From assembly GCF_058153355.1 (NCBI RefSeq), contig NZ_CM177019.1: a stretch of DNA of 64,000 bases. The stretch is one strand, 5' to 3'. How positions within the stretch are numbered: position 1 is the stretch's first letter; each line of letters starts with the position of its first letter. The notes under the pieces were generated by a model. The model had not been told where the DNA came from, did not search any database, and was given only the letters and a program-made list of their open reading frames with translations. The position numbers were made by a program, and so were the translations under genes. Shown here in pieces: positions 2,849 to 49,012 of the stretch.

Positions 2849-3085
2849 ATGATTTGTCCACGTTGTGCCGATGAAAAGATTGAAGTGATGGCGAAATCGC
2901 CGGTGAAAAATGTCTGGACGGTCTACCAGTGCCAGCATTGCCTCTATACATGGCGCGATACCGAACCGCTGCGCCGCACCAGCCGCGAACATTATCCCGA
3001 AGCGTTCCGCATGACGCAGAAAGATATTGATGACGCGCCGATGGTGCCGAGCATTCCGCCGCTGCTGGCGGCAGATAAGCGCTAA
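2849..3085 (+). CDS. ecdD: Small zinc-ribbon D subunit of hydroxyarylic acid decarboxylase
   Basis: 78-aa ORF with CPRC...CQHC motif immediately after the UbiD gene, as in B/C/D decarboxylase clusters. Confidence 0.75.
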   Translation: MICPRCADEKIEVMAKSPVKNVWTVYQCQHCLYTWRDTEPLRRTSREHYPEAFRMTQKDIDDAPMVPSIPPLLAADKR

Positions 3086-3090
3086 TAAAA

Positions 3091-3124
3091 AAGGGCCGGG
3101 TAGAGGCTTTGCTTTACCCGGCCA
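3091..3124. terminator. Hairpin between convergent ecdD and pphB, likely bidirectional terminator
   Basis: gggccgggtagaggctttgctttacccggcc stem-loop flanked by A/T runs. Confidence 0.6.
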
Positions 3125-3126
3125 CG

Positions 3127-3783
3127 TTATTTGATTTTATAAAACGACAGCCGCCCGCTTTTCGGCGATCCGGTATCAATATAAATCTGGTTTGCGAACG
3201 TCTGGATGTTATCAAACATCATATGACCGAAGATAAAGCAGTCGGCGCCGTTTATTTCCTGTAACTCGCCTTTGAGCGATTTCAGTACGCGATCAACAGG
3301 CCAGAGCAATTCTCTCTCCGCTATTTCTTTGCCAAAGAGATATTCATTCCCCGGATAATCTGCATGCGCGATGACATATTTTATTATGTCGTTAGTGATT
3401 TCAACAATATGCGGAAGATTATGAAAACGTAGCAACAGGTCTATTGCTTCTTTTTGTTCCGTATCACTTAACTCAAAGAACCAGTCGCCACCGCTGGCAA
3501 GCCACATATTGCCATCGCCGGTCGCGAACGCATCCAATGCCATCGCTTCATGGTTGCCTTTAACCGATGTAAACCAGGGCTGGTTTAGCAGGCGCAGCAC
3601 GTTAAGACTCTCCGGCCCACGATCAATATTATCGCCGACAGAAATAAGTAAGTCGGTTTCAGGACAAAAAGATAATTGGTGCAGGCGGGATTGCAATAAT
3701 TGATAATCTCCATGAATGTCACCTACCACCCAGATATGGCGATAATGAGTGGTTTCAATTTTACGATAACGAATATCTGGCAT
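3127..3783 (-). CDS. pphB: Serine/threonine protein phosphatase 2
   Basis: ORF-track protein from internal Met (MPDIRYRKIETTHYRHIWVVGDIHGDY..., GDxHG and GNHE metallophosphatase motifs), 218 aa; the upstream in-frame extension to 3921 is rejected. Confidence 0.9.
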   Translation of the reverse strand: MPDIRYRKIETTHYRHIWVVGDIHGDYQLLQSRLHQLSFCPETDLLISVGDNIDRGPESLNVLRLLNQPWFTSVKGNHEAMALDAFATGDGNMWLASGGDWFFELSDTEQKEAIDLLLRFHNLPHIVEITNDIIKYVIAHADYPGNEYLFGKEIAERELLWPVDRVLKSLKGELQEINGADCFIFGHMMFDNIQTFANQIYIDTGSPKSGRLSFYKIK

Positions 3784-3805
3784 TGATCGCGCTCCGTAAA
3801 AAGAA

Positions 3806-4669
3806 TTATTCCGGCTTATGAAACAGAATGGTGTTAATCTCGACATCAGTGATTGCGCCAGCTGCTTCTGCTTTATGTAACCAGTATAGCGCTTTGTCTT
3901 TATCCACACCGTTCTCATCAATGCCCCAGGCGTAAATGCGGCCTAAGGATATTTGGGCATGAGGTAAATCTTGTGCGGCAGCTTTTTCAAACCAGTATTT
4001 AGCCTGTTTAATATCAGCGGGTACACCATCGCCCGTTAAAAAGAGCGTACCATAATTATACTGACCAATTTTGTCGCCTTTTTCTGCCGCAAACTTAAGA
4101 TATGTCGCAGCCTGGAGATAATTCTTTTCCTCGGCTGCGAGGAGCCCTAAATTAGCATGTGCAATGGGGTTTCCCTTTTGCGCCGCTTTAACGAGCCAGG
4201 ATTTTGCTTTATCGATATCATGGAACTTCTCTGGACCAAACTGATAGATATTGGCACAGTTTATCTGTGCCTGAAGATTTCCCTGTCTGGCTGATTTCTC
4301 ATACCAGTGAATGGCATTCTGGTAATCCGGCGGTGTGTCTTCATCTCCCTGATGATATAAAAGCCCGACATAAAATTGCGCAATGTCATCTCCCTGACTG
4401 GCTGCCAGATTAAACCAGTAAAATGCTTTATCGCGGTTTTTAACCCCCGTTACCCCTTCCTGGTAAACAATTCCCAATCCTTTTTGCGCAGATTTATCGC
4501 CGCCTTGTGCCCTTGCGATGATATTTTTCAGGTTTTCCTGTTTGTTTTTAGAATAACGTTGTTCAGCCTGGATAAGATCATCAAGCGAGGGTTCTTTGGC
4601 ACAATAACCTGTAAGAGGAAAATGCAAAATTAGTAGAGTAAATAAAATTAACTTTTTCATACATTCCAT
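3806..4669 (-). CDS. Sel1-repeat (TPR-like) protein with N-terminal signal peptide; not present at this position in K-12
   Basis: 287-aa ORF; hydrophobic N-terminus MKKLILFTLLILHFPLTG; repeated ~36-aa units with A-x-YWF/ W-Y-E-K-A-A-x-QG spacing typical of Sel1 repeats. Confidence 0.7.
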   Translation of the reverse strand: MECMKKLILFTLLILHFPLTGYCAKEPSLDDLIQAEQRYSKNKQENLKNIIARAQGGDKSAQKGLGIVYQEGVTGVKNRDKAFYWFNLAASQGDDIAQFYVGLLYHQGDEDTPPDYQNAIHWYEKSARQGNLQAQINCANIYQFGPEKFHDIDKAKSWLVKAAQKGNPIAHANLGLLAAEEKNYLQAATYLKFAAEKGDKIGQYNYGTLFLTGDGVPADIKQAKYWFEKAAAQDLPHAQISLGRIYAWGIDENGVDKDKALYWLHKAEAAGAITDVEINTILFHKPE

Positions 4670-4768
4670 GAATTAATTGTTGAGTCCTGATTTTAATTAT
4701 ACTCCATCTGTTATTGAGCCAATAATAATTAATAATCCCCGATGGGAAGGCCATCGGGAATTATGCCA

Positions 4769-7330
4769 TTACAGCAAACTCTTCAAGCGATAAATCCACT
4801 CCAGCGCCTGACGCGGAGTCAGTGAATCCGGGTCGAGATTTTCCAGTGCTTCGACCGCTGGCGAGGTTTCTTCCGGTACTGACAGCAAAGACATTTGCGT
4901 ACCATCCACTTGCGTAGCGGCGGCGTTCGGCGAAATGCTTTCCAGTTCACGCAGTTTTTGCCGTGCGCGCTTAATAACCTCTTTTGGCACGCCCGCCAGA
5001 GCAGCAACCGCCAGGCCGTAACTTTTGCTCGCCGCGCCATCCTGCACGCTATGCATAAAGGCAATGGTATCACCGTGCTCCAGCGCATCAAGATGCACGT
5101 TGGCGACGCCTTCCATTTTCTCCGGCAGTTGAGTCAGTTCAAAGTAGTGGGTAGCAAACAACGTCAACGCTTTAATCTTATTCGCCAGATTTTCAGCGCA
5201 CGCCCATGCCAGCGACAGACCATCGTAAGTGGACGTTCCGCGCCCAATCTCATCCATCAACACCAGGCTGTACTCCGTGGCGTTATGCAGAATATTAGCG
5301 GTTTCGGTCATCTCCACCATAAAGGTTGAACGCCCGGATGCCAGATCGTCAGCCGCGCCCACACGGGTAAAGATACGGTCAATCGGGCCAATCTCGACTT
5401 TTTGCGCCGGTACGTAGCTGCCGATATAGGCCATCAGCGCAATCAGTGCGGTCTGGCGCATATAGGTACTTTTACCGCCCATGTTCGGACCGGTGATGAT
5501 CAACATGCGACGCTGCGGCGACAGGTTCAGCGGGTTAGCGATAAACGGCTCATTCAGTACCTGTTCAACCACCGGATGGCGACCTTCGGTAATGCGAATG
5601 CCCGGTTTATCAATGAAGGTCGGGCAGGTGTAGTTCAGGGTATAGGCCCGTTCCGCCAGGTTTACCAGTACGTCGAGTTCTGCCAGTGCGCTCGCGCTCT
5701 GTTGCAACGCTTCCAGATGCGGCAACAACAGGTCGAACAACTCTTCATAAAGCTGTTTTTCCAGTGCCAGCGCTTTACCTTTCGAGGTGAGTACTTTGTC
5801 TTCATACTCTTTTAGCTCTGGAATAATGTAGCGTTCGGCGTTTTTCAGCGTCTGGCGACGCATATAGTTGATGGGTGCCAGATGGCTTTGTCCACGGCTA
5901 ATCTGAATGTAATAACCATGCACCGCGTTAAAGCCGACTTTCAGCGTGTCCAGGCCGGTACGTTCACGCTCGCGAACTTCCAGACGCTCCAGATAATCTG
6001 TCGCGCCGTCAGCCAGCGCTCGCCACTCATCCAGCTCTTCGTTATAGCCTGATGCGATAACACCACCGTCGCGTACCAGCACCGGCGGTGTGTCGATGAT
6101 TGCTCGCTCCAGCAGATCGCGCAGCTCTGCAAACTCGCCCATTTTCTCACGCAGCGCCTGTACCGGTGCACTAGCGACATTTTCTAACTGCGCACGCAGC
6201 TCCGGCAGTTGCTGGAAAGCGTGACGCATACGGGCCAGATCGCGTGGGCGGGCAGTCCGTAAAGCCAGACGTGCCAGAATACGTTCCAGGTCGCCGACCT
6301 GACGCAGTACCGGCTGCAGCTCAGCGGTGAAATCCTGCAATGCGCCAATAGTTTGCTGGCGCTCAAGCAACACGCGGGTATCGCGCACTGGCATATGCAG
6401 CCAGCGTTTCAGCATTCGACTCCCCATCGGCGTTACAGTGCAGTCGAGCACGGAAGCCAGCGTGTTTTCCGCACCGCCCGCCAGGTTCTGGGTAATTTCC
6501 AGGTTACGACGCGTCGCGGCATCCATAATGATGCTGTCCTGCTCACGTTCCATAGTGATAGAACGAATATGCGGCAGAGTCGTACGTTGAGTATCTTTCG
6601 CATACTGCAACAGACAACCGGCGGCACAAAGTCCGCGCGGCGCGTTCTCGACGCCAAAACCGACCAGATCGCGAGTGCCAAATTGTAGATTCAACTGCTG
6701 GCGCGCGGTGTCGATTTCAAACTCCCACAGCGGGCGACGGCGCAAGCCGCGACGACCTTCAATCAGCGACATTTCAGCAAAATCTTCTGCATACAGCAGT
6801 TCCGCCGGATTAGTGCGTTGCAGTTCTGCCGCCATCGTTTCGCGGTCAGCCGGTTCGCTCAGGCGAAAACGACCAGAACTGATATCCAGCGTCGCATAGC
6901 CGAATCCTTTGCTGTCCTGCCAGATAGCAGCCAGCAGGTTGTCCTGACGTTCCTGCAACAGCGCTTCATCGCTGATGGTGCCCGGCGTAACGATACGCAC
7001 AACTTTGCGCTCGACCGGCCCTTTGCTGGTCGCCGGATCGCCAATCTGTTCACAAATAGCAACGGACTCGCCCTGATTCACCAGTTTGGCGAGATAGTTT
7101 TCCACCGCATGGTAGGGAATCCCCGCCATCGGGATCGGCTCTCCCGCCGAAGCGCCGCGTTTGGTCAGTGAAATATCCAGCAGTTGTGACGCACGTTTTG
7201 CGTCGTCATAAAACAGTTCGTAAAAGTCACCCATCCGGTAGAACAGCAGGATCTCGGGATGCTGGGCTTTCAGCTTGAGATACTGCTGCATCATTGGCGT
7301 ATGGGCGTCAAAATTTTCTATTGCACTCAT
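4769..7330 (-). CDS. mutS: DNA mismatch repair protein MutS
   Basis: 853-aa [24 protein letters not shown]..., Walker [10 protein letters not shown]; full length. Confidence 0.97.
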
Positions 7331-7576
7331 GGGGTTATGTCCGGTTCCCTGATATTAAATGGGGTGTGATGGTTTTTATTTTCGTTGTAATCACATAAGG
7401 CGCACATGATACCGGAGTTAATCATTTCAGGGGAAGAAGCGAACGGCGAGTTCTTGATGGTGATTCCGGGAAAGATGCTGTTTTGCAGCTTTTGCGTGAT
7501 GCTTATGAAGCAAGTACGCAAAATTGTATCAGTTGGCGACCCCTTCTTCTTCAGAGCCATAGTCCCCTTTCAAATT

Positions 7577-7599
7577 AAGTTGTAATATAAATACATCTT
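7577..7599 (+). promoter_or_regulatory. Candidate NsrR operator upstream of ygbA
   Basis: aagttgtaatataaatacatctt resembles the NsrR inverted-repeat consensus (AAnATGCATTT...AAATACATCTT), 18 bp upstream of the ygbA start. Confidence 0.45.
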
Positions 7600-7616
7600 A
7601 ATGAGGTGGAGGCAGC

Positions 7617-7970
7617 ATGTCCGGCAAGCGTATCTCTCGTGAAAAACTGACGATTAAAAAAATGATCGATCTTTATCAAGCGAAATGCCCGCAGGCGTCA
7701 GCGGAGCCGGCGCATTACGAGGCATTGTTTGCTTATGCGCAAAAACGGCTGGATAAATGTGTGTTCGGCGAAGACAAACCCGCCTGTAAGCAGTGTCCGG
7801 TGCACTGTTACCAGTCTGCAAAGCGTGAAGAGATGAAACAGATTATGCGTTGGGCCGGGCCGCGCATGCTGTGGCGTCATCCGATCCTAACCGTACGCCA
7901 TCTCATTGATGACAAGCGTCCGGTGCCGGAGTTGCCAGAAAAATATCGCCCGAAAAAACCTCGTGAATAG
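7617..7970 (+). CDS. ygbA: Nitric-oxide-induced protein YgbA
   Basis: 117-aa ORF MSGKRISREKLTIKKMIDLYQAKCP... in conserved position between mutS and fhlA. Confidence 0.9.
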   Translation: MSGKRISREKLTIKKMIDLYQAKCPQASAEPAHYEALFAYAQKRLDKCVFGEDKPACKQCPVHCYQSAKREEMKQIMRWAGPRMLWRHPILTVRHLIDDKRPVPELPEKYRPKKPRE

Positions 7971-8008
7971 TATACCGGACAGGCAGATCTGTCCGGTACC
8001 TCATGCAG

Positions 8009-10087
8009 TTAAACCAATGCCGATTTATCAATCCCCAGTCGTTTCATCCGTGATAGCAGTGTGGTGCGTTTTAGTCCCAGACGTTGCGCCGCGCCTTTCG
8101 GCCCGGCAACCACGCCGTTAGTCTCTTTTAATACACGCACAATTAGCTGATATTCATCTTCGCCCTCCTGAGCGACGACCGTTGCAGTCGGCGGCGTTTT
8201 AGGTTCCGGTAAAGCAATATCAGGCAATGACAGCTGCAGCACGTTGCCACGTGTCAGCAATACCGCGCGCTCAATGACGTTTTCCAGCTCGCGTACGTTA
8301 CCTGGCCACTCCATATTGCTCAACGCGCGCAACGTTTCGGCAGGAATGCTGTCGATATTACGCCCCAGACGGCGGGCAATTTTAAAAGTAAAGGATTTTG
8401 CCAGCAGCGGAATATCTTCCGGACGCTCGCGTAGTGGCGGCAGGTGGATCGGGAATACGTTCAGGCGGTAATAGAGATCGCTACGGAACTCGCGGTCGGC
8501 AACCATTTTTTTCAGATCGCGGTTAGTCGCGGCAATTAAACGCACGTCCGTCTGTATAATTTTATTACTGCCGAGACGTTCAAACTCCTGTTCCTGTAAT
8601 ACACGCAGCAACTTCGGTTGTAACTCCAGCGGCATATCACCCACTTCATCGAGGAACAGGGAGCTTTTATCCGCCAGTTCAAAACGACCGATACGCTGGG
8701 CGCTGGCTCCGGTAAACGCACCACGCTCATGGCCAAACAGATCGCTTTCCAACAATCCGGCAGGCATCGCCGCGCAGTTCATTTTTACCATGCGGCGATT
8801 ATTACGCCCACTGAGATTATGGATCGCGCGGGCAATCAGCTCTTTACCAGTGCCAGTTTCACCGAGGATCAGAACTGTACTGTCACTTTGTGCCACCATT
8901 TCAACTTGTTTAAGCACGCTGTACATGGCTTCACTGCGACCAATAATCTCGCCAAATTCACTATCAACATTGTTGAGCTGCTCGGTCAGGGCGAGATTTT
9001 CATCAACCAGTCGTTCTTTCAGACGATGAATTTCCTGATAGGCAAGGGCGTTATCGACAGCGATTGCCACACGTTCAGCAATCTGGCGCAGTAAATTCAG
9101 ATTGGTCGTGGTAAACACTTTCTCTTCGCATTGCGCCAGTTTCAGCACGCCCAGCATGGTGTCGCCAGACATCAGCGGTAATAGGCACAAGGTTTGAATC
9201 TGGTTGCCCCAGGTGTCGAACAACATGCGTTCGTAAGGGGCTAAATTATCTCGCTCGTGGAGATTAATCAGCAGCATCTCTTTGCTTTTAAACACGCGTT
9301 CGGTGAGGGTTCCTGCTTCATCGACTTCGCTCTGTTCGTGAGCGGGATGCTGTTTATCAAGATAGTGAGTGGAGTAGATGTTGAGTTTGTTTTTACGGTG
9401 GCTGCGTAAGACGATGCTGATATCGTCAATGTCGAAATAGTAATGGATTTCTTTGGCGACTTCGCTGACCAGTTCGTCCATATCCAGGCGAGAAAGCACC
9501 GCGTTGGTGATGGCAACCAGGATGCGGAAGTTATCGCGTTCCCGGCATAACAACTCATAGTCGACATTATTGACGACGCGGCTCTGGATTTGTTCGGTGA
9601 CGACAGAAATGATCTGCGTAAAAGTTTGCAGGCGATTGAACTCTTTTTCACTCCACGGGCGATCGTCATAACGAATAAATTCACAGCCACCAAAAATATG
9701 CCCTTCCGCCGCCAGTGGCATCAGGCAATAGTGACCAAATTTGGGGTATAGCCCACCAGCGGCCAGCTGCGGCCAGGTTTCACAAAATTCTTCGTAACTG
9801 CAATGCAGTGTATCAGGGCGCGACAAAATGCTGCGCACCGGACCGTGTGCCAGAACAGTTTCGTCTTCATAATTTATGGGGGTGTCTTTTTCACGCGACG
9901 CGTAATAAGACGCACGTTGAGTCTGCGCTTGCCACAACACAATAGCTGCATTGTCGGCGAGCGCAGAACGCTTTACCAATTGCGAAAGAGCCTCACACAG
10001 CGAGGCCAGATCGGGCTGCTGCAATAGTGTCCGAGTGATGTCGAACAACCCTTGTTGTCCGAGATCACTCATCGGTGTATATGACAT
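8009..10087 (-). CDS. fhlA: Formate hydrogenlyase transcriptional activator (sigma54-dependent)
   Basis: 692 aa from MSYTPMSDLGQ...; GAF N-terminus, AAA+ sigma54-interaction domain ([14 protein letters not shown]), C-terminal HTH; 12-codon upstream extension rejected. Confidence 0.95.
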   Translation of the reverse strand: MSYTPMSDLGQQGLFDITRTLLQQPDLASLCEALSQLVKRSALADNAAIVLWQAQTQRASYYASREKDTPINYEDETVLAHGPVRSILSRPDTLHCSYEEFCETWPQLAAGGLYPKFGHYCLMPLAAEGHIFGGCEFIRYDDRPWSEKEFNRLQTFTQIISVVTEQIQSRVVNNVDYELLCRERDNFRILVAITNAVLSRLDMDELVSEVAKEIHYYFDIDDISIVLRSHRKNKLNIYSTHYLDKQHPAHEQSEVDEAGTLTERVFKSKEMLLINLHERDNLAPYERMLFDTWGNQIQTLCLLPLMSGDTMLGVLKLAQCEEKVFTTTNLNLLRQIAERVAIAVDNALAYQEIHRLKERLVDENLALTEQLNNVDSEFGEIIGRSEAMYSVLKQVEMVAQSDSTVLILGETGTGKELIARAIHNLSGRNNRRMVKMNCAAMPAGLLESDLFGHERGAFTGASAQRIGRFELADKSSLFLDEVGDMPLELQPKLLRVLQEQEFERLGSNKIIQTDVRLIAATNRDLKKMVADREFRSDLYYRLNVFPIHLPPLRERPEDIPLLAKSFTFKIARRLGRNIDSIPAETLRALSNMEWPGNVRELENVIERAVLLTRGNVLQLSLPDIALPEPKTPPTATVVAQEGEDEYQLIVRVLKETNGVVAGPKGAAQRLGLKRTTLLSRMKRLGIDKSALV

Positions 10088-10160
10088 TTTGTTCTTCCAG
10101 GAAAGCACCGCAAAGCGGTGCAAAAGGTCATTGACTAACTATAGGAGATTTAGAATTTTA

Positions 10161-11171
10161 TTAGCATATACGCGGAAGCGGTTCGGCGTGTGGTAAATCG
10201 AGGGTTCGTTTCACGCCATACAGACCGGCAAGACGAACACCTTTACGTTCCACCACTTCACCAATCAGCGCCGCGTCTTTCCCCAGTGGATGGGAATGTA
10301 ACGCCGCCAGCACTTGCTCTGCTGCGTTGCGTTCAACGGCGATCACCAGTTTGCCTTCGTTGGCAAAGTTAAGGGCGTCCAGCCCCAGCAGTTCGCAAAC
10401 GCCGCGCACGGCAGGTTTAACCGGCAGTGCCGCTTCTGAAATTTCAATACCACAACCGCAGGCTGCCGCGAACTCATGAACTACCGCGTTCACTCCACCA
10501 CGGGTGGCGTCACGCAGTGCCTTCACACCGGGAATATCACGCAGCGTCTGGATGAGCGGCGTCAGCACTGCGCAGTCGCTGACCAGTTCGCCATCCAGCC
10601 CCAGTTGCTCGCGCAGATTAAGAATAGTTGCTCCGTGGTCGCCGAGAGTTCCACTCACCAGCAGAACATCGCCTGCGGTTAGCGTCTGTGCGCCCCAGTG
10701 AATATTCGCCGGGATCGCGCCCATGCCAGCGGTGTTGATAAACAGTTTATCTGCCGCGCCGCGTTGCACCACTTTAGTGTCGCCTGTAACGATGGCAATG
10801 CCTGCCGCGCGGGCGGTTTCTGCCATGCTGGTCACCACGGCTTTTAGCGTCTCCATCGGCAATCCCTCTTCGAGGATAAAGCCACAAGAGAGATAGCGCG
10901 GAATAGCGCCACTGACCGCAACGTCATTCGCGGTGCCACAAATCGCCAGCTTGCCAATATTGCCACCAGGAAAGAACAGCGGGTCGATGACGTAGCTGTC
11001 GGTGGAGAACGCCAGACGGTCGCCTTCTGCCACCAGCTGCGCCAGCTCAAGGCGCGCCTGGTCTTCCTGTTCTGCCAGCCACGGATTGGCAAAAGCTTCC
11101 ATAAACAGGCTGTTGATTAATTGCTGCATCGCCTGGCCGCCGCTGCCGTGGGCGAGTTGGATATTATTCAC
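10161..11171 (-). CDS. hypE: Hydrogenase maturation protein HypE
   Basis: 336-aa ORF, last gene of the hyp cluster. Confidence 0.93.
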   Translation of the reverse strand: MNNIQLAHGSGGQAMQQLINSLFMEAFANPWLAEQEDQARLELAQLVAEGDRLAFSTDSYVIDPLFFPGGNIGKLAICGTANDVAVSGAIPRYLSCGFILEEGLPMETLKAVVTSMAETARAAGIAIVTGDTKVVQRGAADKLFINTAGMGAIPANIHWGAQTLTAGDVLLVSGTLGDHGATILNLREQLGLDGELVSDCAVLTPLIQTLRDIPGVKALRDATRGGVNAVVHEFAAACGCGIEISEAALPVKPAVRGVCELLGLDALNFANEGKLVIAVERNAAEQVLAALHSHPLGKDAALIGEVVERKGVRLAGLYGVKRTLDLPHAEPLPRIC

Positions 11172-12289
11172 GCTTCACTCTCCTGCTGACGATACTGATA
11201 CCACGCGGCGCATGCTCCCTCGGAGGAAACCATCAGCGCGCCAAACGCGGTTTGAGGATTACAGGTGTTACCAAACAGCGGGCATTGATGCGGCTTACAT
11301 TTGCCCGTCAATACTTCGCCACAACGTGCGCGCGGGTCATCGCAAACCTGCTGCGGTGCCGGGCGGAAATGCGCTTCGGCGTCAAATCGTTGATAGTCTG
11401 GCGTCAGGTGTACACCAGAAGATTCAATCACGCCTAAGCCGCGCCATTCGCTGTCGCCGTTGACACAGAACACATCCGCAATCGCCTGTTGCGCCAGCAG
11501 GTTACCGGCATCTGGCACCACCCGCCGATACTGATTTTCTACCTTGCTGTGGGCCGCTATTTTCTGCTCCACCAGCATGACCACGCCTTGTAGTAGATCA
11601 AGCGGTTCGAATCCAGCAACCACCAGAGGACGATGAAAATCACTGGCGATAAAATTATAGGCGTCGGTGCCGATAACCATACTGACGTGGCCCGGCGCGA
11701 GGAACGCATCGATACCGTTATCCGGCTGTTCCAGCAAACTGCGTAGCGTTGGGATCAGCGTAATATGCTGGCAGAAAAAGTAAAAATTTTGCACATCGCG
11801 GGCTTTCGCCTGTTGCAGAGTGATGGCCGTCGTCGGCATGGTGGTTTCAAACCCTAAGCCGAAGAACACCACTTTACGAGTTGGATTCTCCTGCGCCAGT
11901 TTCAACGCATCCATTGGCGAGTAAACGATGCGAACATCGGCACCGCGCGCTTTTGCCTGTAACAGCGACCCTTGTTTCCCTGGTACGCGCATGGCGTCGC
12001 CAAAGGTACAGAAGATGACTTCCGGATGGCTGGCAATCTCCACGCAAGTGTCGATTCTTCCCATCGGCAGTACACATACCGGGCAACCCGGACCGTGGAT
12101 AAACTCGACGTTTTCCGGCAGCAACTGGTCGAGGCCGAATTTAAAAATGGCGTGGGTATGACCGCCGCACACTTCCATAATCCGCAGAGGGCGTTCGGCG
12201 GTGTAAGAGAGATGTGAAGCACGTTCGCGTAGATGCTCAATTAACTGCATCACCTGTTCCGGCGCGCGATATTCATCAACAAAACGCAT
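11168..12289 (-). CDS. hypD: Hydrogenase maturation protein HypD
   Basis: 373-aa ORF, overlaps hypE start by 4 nt. Confidence 0.95.
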   Translation of the reverse strand: MRFVDEYRAPEQVMQLIEHLRERASHLSYTAERPLRIMEVCGGHTHAIFKFGLDQLLPENVEFIHGPGCPVCVLPMGRIDTCVEIASHPEVIFCTFGDAMRVPGKQGSLLQAKARGADVRIVYSPMDALKLAQENPTRKVVFFGLGFETTMPTTAITLQQAKARDVQNFYFFCQHITLIPTLRSLLEQPDNGIDAFLAPGHVSMVIGTDAYNFIASDFHRPLVVAGFEPLDLLQGVVMLVEQKIAAHSKVENQYRRVVPDAGNLLAQQAIADVFCVNGDSEWRGLGVIESSGVHLTPDYQRFDAEAHFRPAPQQVCDDPRARCGEVLTGKCKPHQCPLFGNTCNPQTAFGALMVSSEGACAAWYQYRQQESEA

Positions 12290-12561
12290 TATTTTTCCTC
12301 GCCATACAACAGCGCGCCGACATCCGGCTCAACGTCAAACATGTTTTGTAAGGCGTCGAGGGTGTCGCGCGCTTCGGCTTCATTAATTACGCTCATGGCA
12401 AAGCCAACGTGAACCAGTACCCACTGGCCCACGCGTGGCTGACCGTTTTCATCGCAGCTGCCGACTAACGTTAGGTCGACGTCGCGCTGAATACCGCAGA
12501 CGTCGACTTTCGCCTGGTTGCCGTCAATGGTGCGGATCTGGCCGGGAACGCCTATGCACAT
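12289..12561 (-). CDS. hypC: Hydrogenase maturation chaperone HypC
   Basis: 90 aa from conserved MCIGVPGQI start; upstream extension rejected. Confidence 0.93.
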
Positions 12562-13424
12562 CGCTGTGTCTCCAGCCAGTTCAGCCACTGGTCCATCCCT
12601 TCGCCGCTGGTGGCGGAAATAAGGATGATTTCAATTTCTGGATTGACTTCGCGGGCGCAGGCGATGCACTTCTCAACGTCGAAATTGAGATACGGTAGCA
12701 GGTCAACTTTGTTGAGCAGCATCAGTGAGGCGGCGGCAAACATATGTGGATATTTCAGCGGTTTGTCTTCACCTTCGGTAACGGAAAGCACCGCCACTTT
12801 GTGTTTTTCACCGAGATCGAAGCTCGCCGGACATACGAGGTTGCCAACGTTTTCGATAAACAGAATACCGTTATCGTCCAGTGGCAGGCGCGGCGCGGCG
12901 TCGGCGATCATCTGTGCGTCAAGATGGCAACCTTTACCGGTATTCACCTGAATCGCTGGCGTGCCGGTAGCGCGAATGCGCGCGGCATCGTTCACGGTTT
13001 GCTGGTCGCCTTCAATCACCGCACACGGAACGCTATCTTTCAGGCGCATTAAGGTTTCAGTCAGCAGCGTGGTTTTACCGGAACCAGGGCTGGAAACCAG
13101 GTTGAGTACCAACTGATTGCGGGCAGCAAAGCGCGCTCGGTTGCGTTCAGCCAGACGGTTGTTTTTGTCCAGCACGTCAATTTCGACTTCCAGCATCCGA
13201 CGCTGGCTCATGCCCGGCGCGTGAGTGCCCGCTTCGCCATGACCGTAATGCAGGTCGCCTTCTTCAGTCTGGCTGGGGGTAAATTCAGGCGCTTTAATGC
13301 CGGTGATTTTCATCTTCGGGCGTGCCGCCGGGGCAAATGGCGCGCTACGAAACGCGGAATGAGGGTTATGTTCATCACCCTCGATATACAGGTTGCCTTC
13401 ACCGCAACCGCATGTTGTACACAT
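12552..13424 (-). CDS. hypB: Hydrogenase nickel-incorporation GTPase HypB
   Basis: 290 aa, [11 protein letters not shown]-terminal metal-binding motif, GSGKTT P-loop. Confidence 0.95.
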
Positions 13425-13427
13425 CGC

Positions 13428-13778
13428 TCACTCCTGGTCTATTTCTATCCGCCGAATCTGTAAACCGTCGTCTGCCACAATTTGTAGCATGTCGCCATGA
13501 CACTGTGGACAGCGTCGGACGCGCTGGGTTAATAGCGTCACATATTGTTGGCATGTTTCGCACCAGCATTCGGCCTCTTGTTCTTCGAGGTGCAGTTTAC
13601 AACCTTCCGCTACGCTGCCGCGGCAAACCAGATCAAAACAAAAGGCAAGAGAGCTGGTTTCGACACAAGAAAATGCGCCAATTTTGAGCCAGACCCCAGT
13701 TACGCGTTTTGCACCGTGTTTTGCGGCCTGCTGTTCGATCAATTCCAGTGCCCGTTGGCAGAGGGTTATTTCGTGCAT
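13428..13778 (-). CDS. hypA: Hydrogenase nickel-incorporation protein HypA
   Basis: 116 aa from MHEITLCQ..., CxxC...CxxC zinc site. Confidence 0.93.
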   Translation of the reverse strand: MHEITLCQRALELIEQQAAKHGAKRVTGVWLKIGAFSCVETSSLAFCFDLVCRGSVAEGCKLHLEEQEAECWCETCQQYVTLLTQRVRRCPQCHGDMLQIVADDGLQIRRIEIDQE

Positions 13779-13806
13779 ATCGCCTCCCATTAACTATTGC
13801 CAGCTA

Positions 13807-13824
13807 CAAGCAATAATTGTGCCA
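13807..13824 (-). promoter_or_regulatory. sigma54 (-24/-12) promoter for the hyp operon
   Basis: Minus-strand reading TGGCACaattaTTGCTTG, close match to TGGCAC-N5-TTGC. Confidence 0.6.
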
Positions 13825-13850
13825 GTGTTGATTATCCCTAAAGTGAATAA

Positions 13851-13890
13851 TGTCGATGATGTCGAAATGACACGTCGACACGGCGACGAA
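13851..13890. promoter_or_regulatory. Candidate FhlA upstream activating sequence in the hyp-hyc divergent region
   Basis: Repeated TGTCGA-type half-sites tgtcgatgatgtcgaaatgacacgtcgacacgg between two sigma54 promoters. Confidence 0.4.
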
Positions 13891-13937
13891 ATTCACCAGA
13901 ATCCTAAAAATCTCTTTTATAACAATAAATTAAAAGT

Positions 13938-13954
13938 TGGCACAAAAAATGCTT
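13938..13954 (+). promoter_or_regulatory. sigma54 (-24/-12) promoter for the hyc operon
   Basis: TGGCACaaaaaaTGCTT with GG and GC spaced as in the sigma54 consensus, ~35 bp upstream of hycA. Confidence 0.55.
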
Positions 13955-13989
13955 AAAGCTGGCATCTCTGTTAAACGGGTAACCTGACA

Positions 13990-14451
13990 ATGACTATTTG
14001 GGAAATAAGCGAGAAAGCCGATTACATCGCACAGCGGCATCGTCGCCTACAGGACCAGTGGCATCTCTACTGCAATTCGCTGGTTCAGGGGATCACGTTA
14101 TCGAAAGCGCGCCTGCATCACGCCATGAGCTGTGCGCCAGACAAAGAACTCTGTTTCGTCCTTTTTGAACATTTTCGCATTTACGTCACCCTGGCGGATG
14201 GCTTTAACAGCCACACCATCGAGTATTACGTCGAAACGAAAGAGGGTGAAGAAAAACAGCGGATTGCGCAGGCACAATTGAGCATTGACGGAATGATAGA
14301 TGGCAAGGTCAACATCCGCGATCGCGAACAGGTACTGGAACACTATCTCGAAAAAATCGCTGGCGTTTACGACAGCTTATACACCGCCATTGAAAACAAT
14401 GTACCGGTGAATTTAAGCCAACTGGTAAAGGGACAAAGCCCGGCGGCATGA
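13990..14451 (+). CDS. hycA: Formate hydrogenlyase regulatory protein HycA
   Basis: 153-aa ORF in conserved position. Confidence 0.93.
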   Translation: MTIWEISEKADYIAQRHRRLQDQWHLYCNSLVQGITLSKARLHHAMSCAPDKELCFVLFEHFRIYVTLADGFNSHTIEYYVETKEGEEKQRIAQAQLSIDGMIDGKVNIRDREQVLEHYLEKIAGVYDSLYTAIENNVPVNLSQLVKGQSPAA

Positions 14452-29825: not shown

Positions 29826-32078
29826 ATGGCAAAAAACACATCTTGCGGTGTCCAACTGCGTATTCGTGGCAAAGTGCAGGGCGTCGGTTTTCGTCCCTTT
29901 GTCTGGCAACTGGCACAGCAATTAAATCTTCACGGCGATGTCTGTAATGACGGCGATGGCGTAGAAGTCCGGCTGCTGGAAGACCCGGAAACGTTTCTTG
30001 TTCAATTGCATCAGGATTGTCCGCCGCTGGCGCGTATTGATAGCGTCGAATGTGAGCCGTTTATCTGGATGCAGCCGCCCACTGAGTTCATCATCCGCCA
30101 GAGTGCGGGCGGCGTCATGAATACGCAAATTGTTCCCGATGCCGCTACTTGTCCTGCCTGTCTTGCCGAAATGAATACCCCAGGCGAACGGCGTTATCGT
30201 TATCCGTTTATCAACTGTACCCATTGCGGCCCGCGTTTCACCATTATTCGCGCGATGCCTTACGACCGTCCATTTACCGTGATGGCGGCGTTTCCGCTAT
30301 GTCCGGCCTGCGATAAAGAATATCGCGACCCGCTCGATCGTCGCTTCCACGCCCAGCCGGTGGCCTGCCCGGAGTGTGGCCCACATCTTGAATGGCTAAG
30401 TCATGGTGAACATGCGAAACAAGAGGCGGCATTACAGGCGGCTATCGCTCAGTTAAAAATGGGCAACATTGTCGCTATCAAAGGGATTGGCGGATTTCAT
30501 CTCGCCTGCGATGCGCGTAACAGTAGCGCGGTGGCGACACTACGGGCGCGCAAACATCGCCCGGCGAAACCGCTGGCGGTTATGTTGCCAACGGCAGAAG
30601 GTTTGCCCGACGCTGCCCGTCAGTTGCTCACCACGCCCGCCGCGCCGATTGTACTGGTGGATAAAATATATGTTCCGGAACTTTGTGACGATATCGCCCC
30701 TGGCCTTAACGAAGTCGGGGTGATGTTGCCTGCGAATCCGCTCCAGCATTTGCTGTTACAGGAACTGCAATGCCCACTGGTGATGACCTCCGGCAACCTG
30801 AGCGGTAAACCACCGGCTATCAGCAACGAACAGGCGCTGGAGGACTTGCAGGACATTGCCGACGGATTCTTGATTCATAACCGCGACATCGTGCAGCGGA
30901 TGGATGATTCAGTGGTGCGCGAAAGTGGCGAAATGTTGCGCCGCTCGCGGGGGTATGTACCGGATGCGCTGGCTTTGCCTCCGGGCTTTAAAAATATTCC
31001 TCCTGTGCTGTGTCTCGGTGCGGATCTGAAAAATACCTTCTGTCTGGTGCGTGGTGAACAGTCGGTGTTGAGTCAACATTTGGGCGATTTAAGTGACGAT
31101 GGCATTCAGATGCAGTGGCGCGAAGCGTTGCGCCTGATGCAAAACATCTACGATTTTACTCCACAGTTTGTGGTGCATGATGCGCATCCGGGCTATGTCT
31201 CCAGCCAGTGGGCGCGTGAGATGAATCTGCCGACGCAAACGGTGCTGCATCACCATGCCCACGCGGCGGCGTGTCTGGCAGAACATCACTGGCCGCTGGA
31301 TGGCGGTGATGTCATTGCTTTGACGCTCGACGGTATTGGTATGGGCGAGAACGGCGCTTTATGGGGCGGCGAGTGCTTGCGGGTGAACTATCGCGAATGC
31401 CAGCACCTGGGCGGTTTGCCTGCGGTGGCGCTTGCTGGTGGCGATTTGGCTGCAAAGCAGCCGTGGCGAAACCTGCTGGCGCAGTGCCTGCGCTTTGTAC
31501 CGGAGTGGCAGAATTACCCTGAAACGGCAAGTGTGCAACAGCAAAACTGGAGCGTGCTGGCGCGGGCCATTGAGCGTGGAATTAACGCGCCGCTGGCGTC
31601 ATCGTGTGGGCGTTTGTTCGATGCTGTGGCGGCGGCACTGGGCTGTGCGCCAGCCACGTTAAGTTATGAAGGTGAAGCGGCTTGTGCTCTGGAGGCGCTC
31701 GCAGCTTCGTGCCACGGAGTGACGCATCCGGTGACGATGCTGCTGGTGGACAATCAACTGGATCTCGCCACTTTCTGGCAGCAGTGGCTGAACTGGCAGG
31801 CACCGGTTAATCAACGCGCGTGGGCATTTCATGATGCGCTGGCGCAGGGTTTTGCCGCGTTGATGCGTGAGCAGGCCACGATGTGCGGTATCACTACGCT
31901 GGTATTTAGCGGTGGGGTTATTCATAACCGTTTGCTGCGTGCACGTCTGGCGCATTATCTTGCTGATTTTACGTTGCTCTTCCCGCAGAGTTTACCGGCG
32001 GGGGATGGCGGGTTGTCTCTGGGGCAGGGGGTTATTGTTGCGGCCCGTTGGGTGGCGGGTGAAGTCCAGAACGGATAA
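29826..32078 (+). CDS. hypF: Carbamoyltransferase HypF
   Basis: 750 aa from [27 protein letters not shown]... (acylphosphatase domain, zinc fingers, YrdC and Kae1-like domains). Confidence 0.95.
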
Positions 32079-32092
32079 ACGTGTTGCATTTG

Positions 32093-32186
32093 GATGCAGT
32101 GCCGGATGCGGCGTGAACGCCTTATCCGGCCAACACATGCGCTCCCCGTAGGTCGGATAAGACGCGCCAGCGTCGCATCCGACATT
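32093..32186. repeat. BIME/REP cluster between hypF and norW
   Basis: Two REP-like palindromes (gccggatgcggcgtgaacgccttatccggcc and gtaggtcggataagacgcgccagcgtcgcatccgac). Confidence 0.8.
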
Positions 32187-32204
32187 TTGGGCACACTAGC
32201 CCGC

Positions 32205-33338
32205 CTACATCGGCAAGGTTTTCAACAATCCAAACGCCTCTTTCATCCGATCCTCACTGACTACAAAGGCGCGAAGCTGGTCGGCATCGTCAACGCCGCG
32301 CGCCACCATTCCCTGGCTTTCGGTACAAATCTGCCAGTGCAAATCCCGACGCTGGGTTTCGCCTGCCAGATGCAGCGGTAATTCCGGCGTTTTGATTTTC
32401 ACCAGCATCGCCGGTAGTTTCAGCGACGTGTTATTGCCGAGAAGATTTTTTGCCAGCACCATCGCGCTAAGTTGAATCGGCTGGAGGAACGGCAATACCT
32501 GACCGTTAATTTCCGCGCAATCGCCCAGCGCATAAATATCGGCATTACTGGTTTGCAGATAACTATCGACGCAAACGCCGCGATTAATCGTCAGCCCGGC
32601 GCGTCGTGCCAGGGCGGTTTCCGGGCGCAGTCCGGTGGCGGCAATTACCGCATCCACTTCGATGCTGCGCTGGCGGTCCAGCGTTGCCAGAATGCCAGAA
32701 TCCGTTTTTTCCAGCCCCTGCAACTGAGATTTCAACAGCAGATAAACGCCCATCTCCGTCAACCGATGCTGCAAGCGGCTGCTTACTTCCGGTGGCATTA
32801 ACGACGCCAGAATACTGGCAGCGTTGTCGATTAGCGTGACCGCTTTGCCTGCCCGACAAAAATCCATCGCCAGTTCGCTACCAATCAAACCACCGCCTAC
32901 AATCAACACCCGTCGGGCATCCCGCAGTTGTGTTTCACAGGCGCGATACTCTTGCTGACTATTTAACGTCAGCATTAACTCACGCCCAGGAACCGGCGGG
33001 ACAAAGGCGTTGGCACCGGTTGCCAGCACTAGCTTGTCGTATTGCCACTGATTATTCTGGCTTTTCACCACATGGGCTTCGGCATCGATATCCGTCACCC
33101 AGGTGTGCGGAAACAGGCGCAGATTAAACTGCTCGGCAAATTCACCCGCCGTCTGGCGGGTAAGGTCGTCGGCACGTTGCCCCTGACTGATCACATGGCT
33201 AAGATCAGGTTTGTTGTACTCATCCATGCTGTCGGCGGCAATCAGAGTCAATGGAATACCGGTATCCTGTTTACGAATATTTTTCACCAGTTGGCGGGCG
33301 GCGAAGCCTGAACCAATGATCACAATGCCGTTGCTCAT
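32205..33338 (-). CDS. norW: NADH:flavorubredoxin reductase
   Basis: 377-aa ORF with N-terminal GSGFAA Rossmann motif. Confidence 0.93.
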
Positions 33339-34774
33339 TTTGCCTCCGATGCCAGTTCGTCAAAGACGTCTTTGCCGAGGGAGCATTCCGGGCACAGGAA
33401 GTTATCCGGGACTTCACTCCACGGCGTTCCTGGCGCAACGTCCTGCATTGGCTCGCCTTTTGCCGGATCGTAAATCCACTGGCAGACACTGCACTGCATC
33501 CGCGGACCGAGATCAGCCGTCGTGGTGGCACAGGTTTCTTCTTTAACCACTGTATTCACCGTGCTTTGCGGCAGCGGTGCGAGCGCCCACTGACGGGCGA
33601 TTTCACGACCGTGTTCACGGCATAATTCCAGTGCATCCTGGTCCGGTCGCCATTTGGCTTTCAGGCTAAGCGACATTTCGAAACCCGCATCTTGCAGGCG
33701 CGTGGAAAGACGATCCACGGCACCGCCGCTCCAGCCGTGAGAGCCGAAAGCACTGGCGCGTTTGTTACGGAAGCGTAATCCGGTCATCTCCTCCACCAGC
33801 CCGGCGATTTTCGGCATCATCACGTTATTCATCGTCGAAGTGCCAACCAGCACGCCTTTTGAGCGGAAGACATTGGTCAGGATTTCGTTTTTATCGCTTC
33901 GGGCGACGTTGAAAATTTTCACCGCCACGCGCGGGTCGGTTTCCGCAATCCCCTGGGCGATAGCGTCAGCCATCATGCGGGTGTTATTCGACACGGTGTC
34001 GTAGAAAATGGTGATTCTGTCTTCCTGATAATCCGCCGCCCATTTCAGGTACAGCTCGACAATTTGCGTCGGGTTATCGCGCCATACCACGCCGTGAGAG
34101 GTGGCAATCATATCGACCGGCAAGTTAAAGCCCAGGATCTCGGTGATTTTCGGCGTTACCAGGCGGCTGAACGGTGTCAGGATATTGGCGTAGTAACGCT
34201 GACACTGCTCGAAAAGCTCGGTCTGATCCACTTCATCGTTGAAGAGATGCTCGTCGCAGTAGTGCTGACCGAAAGCATCGTTACTGAACAGCACCGCGTC
34301 GCCCGTCAGGTAAGTCATCATGCTGTCCGGCCAGTGCAGCATTGGCGTTTCGACAAAAATGAGTTGTTTGCCGTTGCCGATATCCAGCGTGTCGCCGGTT
34401 TTCACCACGTTGAAATTCCACTCTGGATGATGGTGATGACCATTTATTGAGTCGATAGCGTTGGCAGTACAATAGATCGGCGTATCGGGAATTTGTGCCA
34501 TCAGTTCGGTCAGCGCCCCGGCGTGGTCCTCTTCAGCATGGTTAATCACGATGTAATCGATATCCGCCAGATCGATTTCATTACGCAGGTTCTGCACAAA
34601 TTCGCGGCTGAATTTATGGTCGACGGTGTCGATCAGCACGTTTTTTTCTTCGCGAATGAGGTAGCTGTTGTAGCTGCTGCCGCGCAGCGTTTTATATTCC
34701 GTGCCGTGAAAATCACGCACTTCCCAGTCACGTTGACCAACCCAATGAATGTTATTTTTCACCACAATAGACAT
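33335..34774 (-). CDS. norV: Anaerobic nitric oxide reductase flavorubredoxin
   Basis: 479-aa ORF, metallo-beta-lactamase/flavodoxin core and C-terminal rubredoxin CxxC...CxxC. Confidence 0.95.
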
Positions 34775-48919: not shown

Positions 48920-49012
48920 GGTGAGGTGGCCGAGAGGCTGAAGGCGCTCCCCTGCTAAGGGAGTATGCGGTCAAAAGCTGCATCCGGGGTTCGAATCCCC
49001 GCCTCACCGCCA
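48920..49012 (+). tRNA. serV: tRNA-Ser (GCU)
   Basis: 93-nt GGTGAGGTGGCCGAGAGGC...CGCCTCACCGCCA with long variable arm and encoded CCA. Confidence 0.95.

Follow-up and report, generated by a model that had tools for sequence, protein, structure and literature searches.

An accessory gene between mutS and pphB of Escherichia for a small Sel1-like-repeat protein with predicted export

In a stretch of 64,000 nucleotides from NCBI RefSeq assembly GCF_058153355.1 (contig NZ_CM177019.1), hereafter called the window, an open reading frame lies between mutS and pphB, and the locus raises the question of which kind of protein is encoded there, how the gene came to this position and what its product might do. 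The original prediction placed a Sel1-repeat protein with a signal peptide between pphB and mutS and stated that it is absent from this position in K-12. Both statements agree with what was found: the genes follow each other in the order mutS, sel1 and pphB, and in K-12 the mutS-pphB spacer comprises only 105 bp, leaving positions 3784..4728 of the window without a K-12 counterpart. That all three genes are encoded on the minus strand is an addition to the original prediction. No deletion scar was found at the mutS-pphB position of K-12, which has only a hairpin and a -10 layout in common with the window. Judged by its sequence, sel1 is a genuine accessory gene of an ordinary kind, encoding a small Sel1-like-repeat (SLR) protein that is predicted to be exported. 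Host interaction or envelope processes, the roles named in the original prediction, are generic for the family and may or may not apply to this member.

The uninterrupted open reading frame on the minus strand extends over 3806..4669 and corresponds to 287 amino acids in the open reading frame list. This extent had been taken as the gene; the reading frame stands, while the start most likely does not, as 4669 is an upstream in-frame ATG and both the orthologues and RefSeq start at 4660. Translation most likely begins at this second ATG, resulting in a protein of 284 amino acids starting with MKKLIL. In the alignment all nine orthologues begin with M-K/R at the position matching ATG 4660, and a GGA is found 4 nt 5' of this ATG, as it is in Citrobacter. 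The sel1 coding sequence is placed at 3806..4660 (minus strand, stop included) by the open reading frame, the Pfam Sel1 match, the orthologue alignment and the RefSeq CDS, which is 855 nt long and uninterrupted in each of the seven complete genomes inspected. An identical protein sequence is already present in NCBI (e.g., EGO8352689.1) under the name "sel1 repeat family protein", and WP_050487870.1 is a near-identical RefSeq form. The G+C content of sel1 is 42.9%, compared to 55% for mutS and 52.6% for the whole window.

The repeats predicted for this protein, described as tandem and Sel1/TPR-like, are recovered by profile and by fold. Pfam PF08238 (Sel1) matches in five stretches with E=9.7e-43 and 143.5 bits against a gathering cut-off of 30.7, i.e., far beyond chance, and the AlphaFold2 model (pLDDT 92.6, pTM 0.85) shows 16 helices, arranged as an N-cap (residues 38-52), six helix pairs and a C-cap (residues 272-280). 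The six SLR helix-pair units occupy residues 55-268 (3857..4498, minus strand), as judged from the AlphaFold2 secondary structure, Foldseek matches to SLR crystal structures, the stacking of the repeats and invariant positions. The SLR family is defined by tandem antiparallel helix pairs of approximately 36-44 residues forming a right-handed alpha-solenoid; this architecture is found in the window protein, with pairs spanning 32-37 residues each in the model. The best Foldseek matches in the PDB are all SLR proteins, i.e., EsiB (4bwr), Oxalobacter SLRs, LceB, LpnE and HcpC. In the orthologue alignment, the A-helices of repeats 3-6 are the best-conserved parts and carry invariant Asn, His and Tyr residues: mean column identity is 0.85-0.91 for helices 3A, 4A, 5A and 6A vs. 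0.63-0.69 for helices 1A and 2A, and 10 of the 13 positions of helix 3A are invariant. By analogy with known solenoids these conserved helices should line the predicted groove, and their conservation suggests that the partner is a single, conserved one and does not change quickly. The mature protein contains a single cysteine, C135, which is invariant across every orthologue. An all-against-all profile search returned 159,444 SLR relatives with only one close cluster and yielded no functional lead.

The hydrophobic N-terminus has the layout of a signal peptide, as had been proposed. Residues 1-20 (MKKLILFTLLILHFPLTGYC, followed by A; 4601..4660, minus strand) form a predicted Sec signal peptide without lipobox, based on a heuristic analysis of the n-, h- and c-regions of 10 orthologues and on low pLDDT. 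In the window protein, an n-region with KK at residues 2-3 is followed by a 10-residue stretch with a mean Kyte-Doolittle hydropathy of 2.69, and cleavage after G-Y-C, before A, at residue 20 satisfies the -3/-1 rule by the same heuristic. In all 10 family members, a hydrophobic core with a mean hydropathy of 2.5-3.2 follows an n-region with K/R, and a -3/-1 site lies near residue 19-20; the model has a pLDDT of about 50 at residues 1-20 vs. more than 90 for the remainder of the protein. At the best predicted cleavage site the -1 residue is a cysteine, which is allowed and uncommon. A lipobox of the type [LVI][ASTVI][GAS]C is absent from the signal-peptide end in 10 of 10 orthologues; the window protein reads L-T-G-Y-C, with Tyr at -1 of the cysteine. 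Taken at face value, these N-terminal features would direct the Sel1 protein to the periplasm.

The conserved upstream anchor of the insertion slot is mutS (4769..7330, minus strand; open reading frame and RefSeq annotation), with a protein 99.4% identical to K-12 MutS. Directly 3' of the mutS stop, the hairpin scan revealed a terminator-like hairpin with a 14-pair stem and a 5-nt loop (4732..4764, minus strand), which is found at the same place in K-12, strain 042, Citrobacter and Pseudocitrobacter. It is followed by a GTATAAT -10-like element 35 nt upstream of the ATG (4696..4702, minus strand), read from the sequence and from cross-species alignment. This element is preceded by an A/T-rich tract and a weak -35 (TTGGCT, 15-nt spacer), and it aligns with a GTATAAT 5' of sel1 in two Citrobacter loci and 5' of pphB in K-12, where the layout of hairpin and GTATAAT directly precedes pphB. 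A strict sigma-70 promoter scan called no promoter on the coding strand, GTATAAT included, and because the -35 is weak the promoter is a putative one. Downstream, a spacer of 22 nt separates the sel1 stop from the pphB ATG (3784..3805, minus strand); it contains a GGAG Shine-Dalgarno sequence (3792-3795) 8 nt before the ATG, and the scan reported no hairpin or terminator-like site within it. The next gene, pphB (prpB; 3127..3783, minus strand), encodes a cytoplasmic lambda-type Ser/Thr phosphoprotein phosphatase according to Pfam (Metallophos, E=3.4e-16) and the RefSeq annotation of the orthologous locus. By this arrangement pphB is probably the second gene of a transcription unit sharing the sel1 promoter, and a G+C-rich hairpin where the genes pphB and ecdD converge (3094..3123, no strand assigned) is the likely end of this unit. 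No RNA family was found in or near 3000-5000 in an Rfam scan of the whole window. The only PADLOC hit, to the N-terminal part of a PtuA model, is partial and scores 21.5 bits, with no stretch passing alone, and in view of this lack of a credible match an anti-phage defence-system protein was rejected.

A presence/absence survey across E. coli, proposed along with the original prediction, was carried out and located a Sel1 gene at the mutS-pphB position in 191 of 5426 complete genomes (~3.5%). Eleven of these carry the allele of the window, and about 180 carry a second, 042-type allele, which is 54% identical in protein to the first; strain 042 itself belongs to phylogroup D. Immediately 3' of mutS, Citrobacter and Pseudocitrobacter have orthologues with 57-68% identity, and in Klebsiella spallanzanii a third, unrelated Sel1 gene with predicted export occupies the same slot, in the order SLR, hok and pphB. 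GTDB species representatives were scanned with two family-specific motifs, for which exact matches were required, so that the result, at least two loci (C. werkmanii and a Pseudocitrobacter MAG), is a lower bound. The carriers were mostly isolated from human or animal guts. In many public draft genomes the window-type allele is split into fragments of 170 and 87 amino acids, one 042-type copy is frameshifted, and another has an IS4-like element annotated alongside. As such split fragments are common, sel1 is dispensable, and in some lineages it may be undergoing decay. The association of sel1 with pphB is not a strict one: Citrobacter has sel1 but no intact pphB, and most pphB-bearing genomes, including K-12, E. 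albertii-type strains, Salmonella and Superficieibacter, have no sel1. In the PphB neighbourhoods of Salmonella, Superficieibacter, Kluyvera and an E. albertii-type strain no SLR partner was found, which weakens the case for an obligate sel1-pphB partnership.

The gene is under purifying selection, with dN/dS values of 0.08-0.19 in unsaturated comparisons across deep divergences, while synonymous divergence between the two E. coli alleles is saturated. Comparing strain 042 with Pseudocitrobacter, dS amounts to 0.22 for sel1, 0.35 for pphB and 0.82 for mutS, and the block is 85-99.5% identical vs. 70-91% for the flanks. In C. enshiensis, a duplicated 3' end of mutS and two 5' fragments of pphB are found. 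These footprints read as exchange between genera, with the resemblance of the 042-type block to Pseudocitrobacter as a clear case. The mutS-rpoS segment is described as a hypervariable, recombination-prone segment of the E. coli chromosome with lineage-specific inserts and a mosaic mutS (Herbelin, 2000; Culham and Wood, 2000; Kotewicz, 2002; Ewers, 2014, PMC4209514), and sel1 lies in this same polymorphic region. The variants published for it are, as far as the accessible text of these sources goes (including PMC4209514), the rpoS-proximal o454-nlpD and slyA-pad1-yclC variants, and a Sel1 gene between mutS and pphB is not mentioned there. The "sel1 protein" region of PMC4552563 comprises 6 kb and three genes and differs from the sel1 locus of the window in size and gene count. 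A publication on the mutS-pphB sel1 gene was not found in the literature.

Taken together, we consider it reasonably probable that sel1 encodes an accessory soluble periplasmic SLR binding protein, predicted to be exported and carried on a cassette moved by recombination. The protein would carry a cleavable Sec signal peptide, removed near residue 20, and would not be a lipoprotein. Once released it would form a soluble periplasmic alpha-solenoid of approximately 29.5 kDa, which by analogy with characterised SLR proteins would bind a protein or peptide partner via the predicted groove. A binding role is proposed because SLR/TPR solenoids have no catalytic site, and a soluble periplasmic adaptor binding proteins or peptides appears to be the most likely role. 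Transcription would start at the -10 element just past the mutS terminator and read into pphB. Within the hypervariable mutS-rpoS region, the gene itself would be a dispensable cassette, and cassettes of this type would move by recombination via the conserved flanks.

Among the alternatives, an orphan immunity protein, i.e., a periplasmic SLR protein that neutralises an incoming type VI secretion (T6SS) effector of competitors, is unlikely. SLR immunity proteins are documented, namely Klebsiella Sel1E against VgrG4 (PMC7108748) as well as RhsAI and Pseudomonas PA5087/88 (PMC7216683), and the Foldseek matches of the window protein include PA5087, PA5086 and PA5088. Pseudomonas PA5086-5088 confer immunity against the phospholipase PldB. 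The patchy distribution, the low G+C content, the two alleles with saturated synonymous divergence, the intergenus exchange and the third, unrelated SLR gene in the K. spallanzanii slot are also consistent with such a role. However, in the window, in 042 and in Pseudocitrobacter alike, sel1 has no effector, vgrG, rhs or T6SS gene as a neighbour, and the PA5086-88 matches are weak (Foldseek E about 3e-5 to 2e-4, 17-18% identity) in comparison to EsiB (33%, E=1.5e-11). In addition, an arms race is expected to vary the presumed binding helices, yet these are the most conserved parts between the 54%-identical alleles, and the dN/dS of sel1 is well under 1. In C. enshiensis, T6SS genes are present more than 5 kb from sel1, beyond mutS.

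It is distinctly unlikely that the protein serves in host interaction as EsiB or LpnE do, acting at the surface or in the medium to bind a host molecule such as secretory IgA and thereby modulating colonisation or immunity. Pointing in this direction, EsiB (c5321) of uropathogenic E. coli is the best match in both sequence and fold, EsiB binds SIgA (PMC3735183), the carriers come mostly from human or animal guts, and the Pseudocitrobacter orthologue goes by the name "Secretory immunoglobulin A-binding protein" in one source, by annotation transfer. Against this, the EsiB chain of 467 residues is about twice as long, an identity of 33% is the generic level of the SLR consensus and does not indicate an orthologue, and sel1 is accompanied by no secretion system, autotransporter or anchoring signal, so that a Sec signal alone would result in a soluble periplasmic protein. 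Furthermore, Citrobacter, Pseudocitrobacter corydidari and a Pseudocitrobacter metagenome bin all have orthologues, and none of these is a known pathogen.

The junction harbours at least three Sel1 types, each highly divergent from the others, in Escherichia, Citrobacter, Pseudocitrobacter and Klebsiella. On this basis the mutS-pphB junction might be a long-lived dedicated Sel1 slot, with SLR protein and PphB as a two-compartment envelope module of which K-12 keeps a remnant (promoter and pphB), a proposal that we regard as highly doubtful. In such a module, the task of the periplasmic SLR protein would be to sense an agent targeting the envelope or to neutralise it, and that of PphB to adjust a Cpx-type stress response.

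A related proposal, that the SLR protein is an envelope-signalling partner of PphB which senses or sequesters an envelope component, comparable to ExoR with the kinase ExoS, while PphB/PrpB tunes the Cpx/htrA misfolding response, is very improbable. The paralogue PphA/PrpA is reported to modulate CpxRA and htrA, as cited in PMC6610125; the source given there, Missiakas and Raina (1997), reportedly deals with both PrpA and PrpB. The 22-nt gap with pphB's own Shine-Dalgarno sequence and no terminator would fit such a partnership, as would the sel1-pphB pairing kept in the lineage of the window, in 042-type E. coli and in Pseudocitrobacter, the surviving pphB fragment next to sel1 in C. enshiensis, the SLR gene followed by hok and pphB in K. 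spallanzanii and the occurrence of ExoR among the weak NCBIfam matches. However, the two proteins would reside in different compartments and no gene for a membrane component lies between theirs, each gene is widespread without the other, the ExoR match reaches 28.8 bits compared to a cut-off of 450, and the adjacency may just reflect a common insertion slot. Finally, a decaying passenger without current function in a recombination hotspot, as might be read from the absence of sel1 in ~96% of E. coli genomes, the 170- and 87-residue fragments common in draft genomes, the frameshifted 042-type copy and the copy beside an IS4-like element, is barely credible given a dN/dS of 0.08-0.19 across deep divergences, an open reading frame intact in 7 of 7 complete genomes inspected and a signal-peptide-like layout and repeat architecture kept in four genera.

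As a probable periplasmic binding protein, the sel1 product is of modest importance: it adds a narrowly distributed, uncharacterised subfamily of SLR proteins with predicted export, so far in Escherichia, Citrobacter and Pseudocitrobacter, and the mutS-pphB junction constitutes one more point of cassette exchange inside the already famous mutS-rpoS mosaic region. The finding opens no new mechanism, and the sequence was already in NCBI. The gene could mark lineages, i.e., the 042-type and the divergent Escherichia lineage of the window, and if a partner is found, it could help to explain the location of PphB.

Compared with characterised SLR systems, membership in the subfamilies considered (EsiB, Hcp, MerG, MotX, AlgK, ExoR and T6SS immunity) was supported in no case. 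ExoR, MotX, AlgK and MerG share the repeat type, are envelope-associated by their NCBIfam or PDB names and give partial NCBIfam matches; as equivalogs they were rejected with 76.7 of 350 bits for MerG, 52.4 of 330 for MotX, 33.6 of 700 for AlgK and 28.8 of 450 for ExoR, relative to the cut-offs. The NCBIfam model of AlgK describes a lipoprotein, whereas the Sel1 protein of the window has no lipobox, and no flagellar, alginate, mer or exo genes are found near sel1. Helicobacter HcpB and HcpC (PDB 1ouv) resemble the window protein as small exported SLR solenoids (HcpC: 265 residues, Foldseek E=5.6e-9), with an identity of 21%. Hcp proteins have a disulfide-forming cysteine pair per repeat, and membership in this family was rejected with only one mature cysteine (C135) in every orthologue. 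The UniProt name of the 042-type allele B7N6W5, "Beta-lactamase", may derive from the Hcp family. EsiB (c5321 of CFT073, PDB 4bwr) has the same repeat type and solenoid (phmmer E=1.5e-53), is also an E. coli accessory protein and ranks first in Foldseek (E=1.5e-11, TM 0.74 on the query, 33% identity over 242 columns). It differs in being a 467-residue chain from another locus, in comparison to 284 residues with six SLRs in the window protein, and orthology was rejected, as the match is not full-length (the EsiB family has ~470-490 residues) and is split into four repeat-level domains. An SLR-type T6SS immunity locus is not supported by location, the neighbours being mutS and pphB in the window, 042 and Pseudocitrobacter; the likeness to PA5086-5088, Klebsiella Sel1E and EHEC RhsAI lies in their being SLR proteins that act by binding alone (PMC7216683, PMC7108748).

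Between mutS (4769..7330, minus strand) and pphB (3127..3783, minus strand) the window encodes an annotated, uncharacterised accessory Sel1-repeat protein, listed in NCBI with the exact sequence as 'sel1 repeat family protein / tetratricopeptide repeat protein'. At 3806..4669, the coordinates given in the original prediction, the minus strand is open over 287 codons; the strand had to be added and the start revised. The ATG at 4669 places Met-Glu-Cys ahead of a second ATG at 4660, and it is the position of the second ATG that aligns with the M-K/R start of related proteins (9/9). As the RefSeq annotation also gives an 855-nt CDS (7/7 complete genomes inspected) and a GGA is found 4 nt 5' of the ATG at 4660, the same as in Citrobacter, sel1 was taken as 3806..4660 (284 aa). 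The Sel1 repeats that had been claimed were recovered in five stretches of the protein with Pfam PF08238 (E=9.7e-43, 143.5 bits at a 30.7-bit cut-off). K-12 lacks the gene at this position, as had also been stated: its mutS-pphB spacer comprises only 105 bp and a counterpart of window positions 3784..4728 (945 bp) is missing. In the presence/absence survey that had been proposed, a Sel1 gene was found between mutS and pphB in 191/5426 complete E. coli genomes. The original prediction is correct and its reading sound, the object itself being ordinary.

The N-terminus of the protein (MKKLILFTLLILHFPLTGYC/AKEP, the slash marking the putative cleavage site) combines two lysines with a highly hydrophobic core, in agreement with the hydrophobic N-terminus noticed initially, and the G-Y-C/A site fits the -3/-1 rule. 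The tripartite layout is common to 10/10 family members with varying individual residues, and a lipobox is absent from all ten. Export is a well-founded prediction from these features. An AlphaFold2 model built with a 51-sequence alignment reached a mean pLDDT of 92.6 and a pTM of 0.85; its low-confidence stretch, residues 1-20, is consistent with a signal peptide. The model comprises two N-terminal helices (residues 27-33 and 38-52), six helix pairs (residues 56-266), forming six repeat units of 32-37 residues each, and a C-terminal cap helix (residues 272-280). The mature protein would have 264 aa, ~29.5 kDa and a pI of 6.0, with one cysteine that is invariant across orthologues. All top Foldseek matches in the PDB are SLR proteins, encompassing EsiB/c5321 (33% identity), Oxalobacter SLR proteins, Legionella LceB and LpnE, and HcpC, followed at lower ranks by SEL1L, AlgK and the Pseudomonas T6SS immunity proteins PA5086-5088.

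Conservation among the ten orthologues is uneven and peaks in the A-helices of repeats 3-6. In helix 3A (LQAQINCANIYQF) 10/13 positions are invariant and helices 4A, 5A and 6A show a mean identity of 0.85, while repeats 1-2, the caps and the signal peptide are far more variable. The invariant residues N134, N137, H168, N170, Y201, N202 and Y203 are positions outside the generic SLR consensus. As a rule, the concave groove in which TPR and SLR solenoids take up their ligands is lined by A-helices, and the conserved helices may therefore form a peptide- or protein-binding groove. The SLR fold lacks a catalytic site; the SLR proteins characterised so far function through binding. We consider it rather probable that the window protein is likewise a periplasmic SLR protein working by binding. 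It would be soluble, with the periplasm as default location, because it carries a Sec signal, has no lipobox and is encoded without a dedicated secretion system nearby. It would bind one conserved partner through the presumed groove helices, since these are the most strongly conserved elements even between E. coli alleles with 54% protein identity. An endogenous envelope component or peptide fits better as this partner than an arms-race target. An orphan T6SS immunity protein is one rival explanation: SLR immunity proteins are documented (PMC7108748, PMC7216683), but the similarity to them is weak. The protein might otherwise be a host factor like EsiB, its best match; EsiB, however, is no orthologue, and a route to the surface is lacking.

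A third rival, an envelope-signalling partner of PphB, draws on the arrangement of the genes. A 14-pair hairpin (4764..4732, minus strand) directly follows the mutS stop, and a GTATAAT (4702..4696, minus strand) is located 3' of an A/T-rich tract, 35 nt before the ATG. A strict sigma-70 scan called no promoter for sel1, owing to the poor -35. The mutS stop, a hairpin and GTATAAT follow one another in this order also ahead of sel1 in two Citrobacter loci and ahead of pphB in K-12. The spacer from the sel1 stop to the pphB ATG measures 22 nt and carries a GGAG 8 nt 5' of the ATG; it contains no hairpin, and the next one (3094..3123) follows pphB. From this we infer that sel1 and pphB form a single transcription unit, and the K-12 arrangement looks like this unit without the sel1 ORF. 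The gene order makes a PphB partner attractive, and for PrpA an action on Cpx/htrA is reported, which an excerpt of PMC6610125 credits to Missiakas and Raina (1997); however, sel1 and pphB are each widespread without the other.

Compared with K-12 and >5,300 further complete E. coli genomes, the whole window reaches only ~94.5-94.8% identity (e.g., 4729-14425 and 30000-34000), and the closest complete genome shows 98.5% identity. It therefore derives from a divergent Escherichia lineage and not from mainstream E. coli. In strain 2020CK-00188, otherwise a close relative, rpoS is annotated as frameshifted (L001 3551-4544). Elsewhere in the window, Rfam assigned a cluster of four tRNA genes (48920-49544, plus strand), the MicA sRNA (52391-52462, minus strand) and, barely over threshold, naRNA4 (59060-59137, minus strand). 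The window allele occurs in 11 of the 191 Sel1 carriers with at least 99.4% identity over the gene, and among the loci examined its carriers span six hosts or countries. A second allele, 61% identical at the DNA level, is found in ~180 carriers, such as strain 042 and an ST69-named strain. Orthologues beyond E. coli are encoded in Citrobacter (C. enshiensis, C. werkmanii and others) and Pseudocitrobacter with 57-68% identity, past which identity falls to the generic SLR level of <=38%.

Every orthologue examined comes immediately after mutS, in the same orientation, and is followed by ecdDCB-marR(-rpoS). The slot is empty in the K-12, E. albertii-type and Superficieibacter loci examined. In Klebsiella spallanzanii (L014 2460-3455) it contains a different exported Sel1 protein, ~35% identical, of 332 aa when read from an upstream ATG (Pfam E=2.6e-65); the gene caller had started it too late, without a recorded Pfam match. 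The gene order is mutS-SLR-hok-pphB-hok-ecdD, two hok-family toxin genes (L014 3534-3686 and 4736-4888) flanking pphB. A small exported protein of ~177 aa without a Pfam match is encoded on the opposite strand in the slot of an E. marmotae-type locus (L015 3375-3908) and of Citrobacter (C. enshiensis, L008 8111-8641; L005 7982-8608; all minus strand), the Escherichia and C. enshiensis copies being 51% identical. Between ygbA and fhlA, a TOBE-domain gene is present in 042 (L002 11142-11570) and an E. albertii-type locus and is missing from the window (7970-8009) and K-12.

By Nei-Gojobori estimates, unsaturated sel1 pairs have a dN/dS of 0.08-0.19, indicating purifying selection, which contradicts the view of sel1 as a decaying passenger gene. 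Between the window and 042 the synonymous sites of sel1 are saturated (pS 0.78) at a mutS dS of 0.28, so the two Escherichia alleles are far older than the divergence of their host genomes. Between 042 and Pseudocitrobacter, dS is 0.22 for sel1 and 0.35 for pphB, against 0.82 for mutS. A sliding comparison of 042 (L002) with Pseudocitrobacter corydidari (L007) revealed a ~3.5-kb block, 85-99.5% and mostly >=90% identical, reaching from the mutS 3' end over sel1, pphB and ecdD to ecdC, whose flanks show 80-91% identity towards mutS and 69-86% towards ecdB/marR. The elevated identity indicates that this block was transferred between genera fairly recently. In C. enshiensis (CP119862.1, L008 7856-8925) the sequence after sel1 starts with 50 bp from the 5' end of pphB and a REP-like element, after which the mutS 3' end appears once more, again with its hairpin. 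Next come the opposite-strand gene, a K-12-like promoter with GTATAAT and, last, another pphB 5' remnant, of 48 codons. This series is the footprint of an integrated donor segment mutS'-sel1-pphB'. The window sel1 (42.9% G+C) and pphB (44%) are lower in G+C than mutS (55%) and the window as a whole (52.6%). Within Escherichia, pphB shows an unusual degree of polymorphism (dS 0.62-0.72 among the window, 042 and K-12), with 0.21-0.28 for the adjoining mutS in the same comparison. Decay of sel1 also occurs. In draft genomes the window allele is commonly present as fragments of 170 and 87 aa. Fragments, recorded on 54 (170 aa), 30 (87 aa) and 7 (119 aa) contigs, outnumber the intact exact sequence (20 contigs), suggesting that a frameshift or nonsense variant is common in some strains. 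One copy of the 042-type gene is frameshifted, and E. coli CE0007a (NZ_CP119011.1) has an annotated IS4-like ISVsa5 transposase separating mutS from the 042-type gene.

Compared with known systems, the window protein belongs to the SLR family by both profile and fold, but to none of the characterised subfamilies considered. It differs from Hcp by the absence of the family-defining cysteine pairs, from EsiB by about half the length at 33% identity, from MerG, MotX, AlgK and ExoR by scores far under every NCBIfam cut-off, from lipoproteins by the missing lipobox and from SLR T6SS immunity proteins by the lack of an adjoining effector gene. A PADLOC defence-system search with the protein gave no credible match. 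The 042-type protein B7N6W5_ECOLU is named 'Beta-lactamase' in one source in UniProt, likely an over-annotation since the Hcp-defining cysteine pairs are absent; the name may be carried over from the Helicobacter Hcp family. The setting of sel1 is the well-known mutS-rpoS mosaic region, as described in an excerpt of PMC4209514; the excerpts found on this region describe other inserts and do not mention sel1. The history of the locus is mildly interesting for the conservation of the slot, the two ancient alleles and the exchange between genera.
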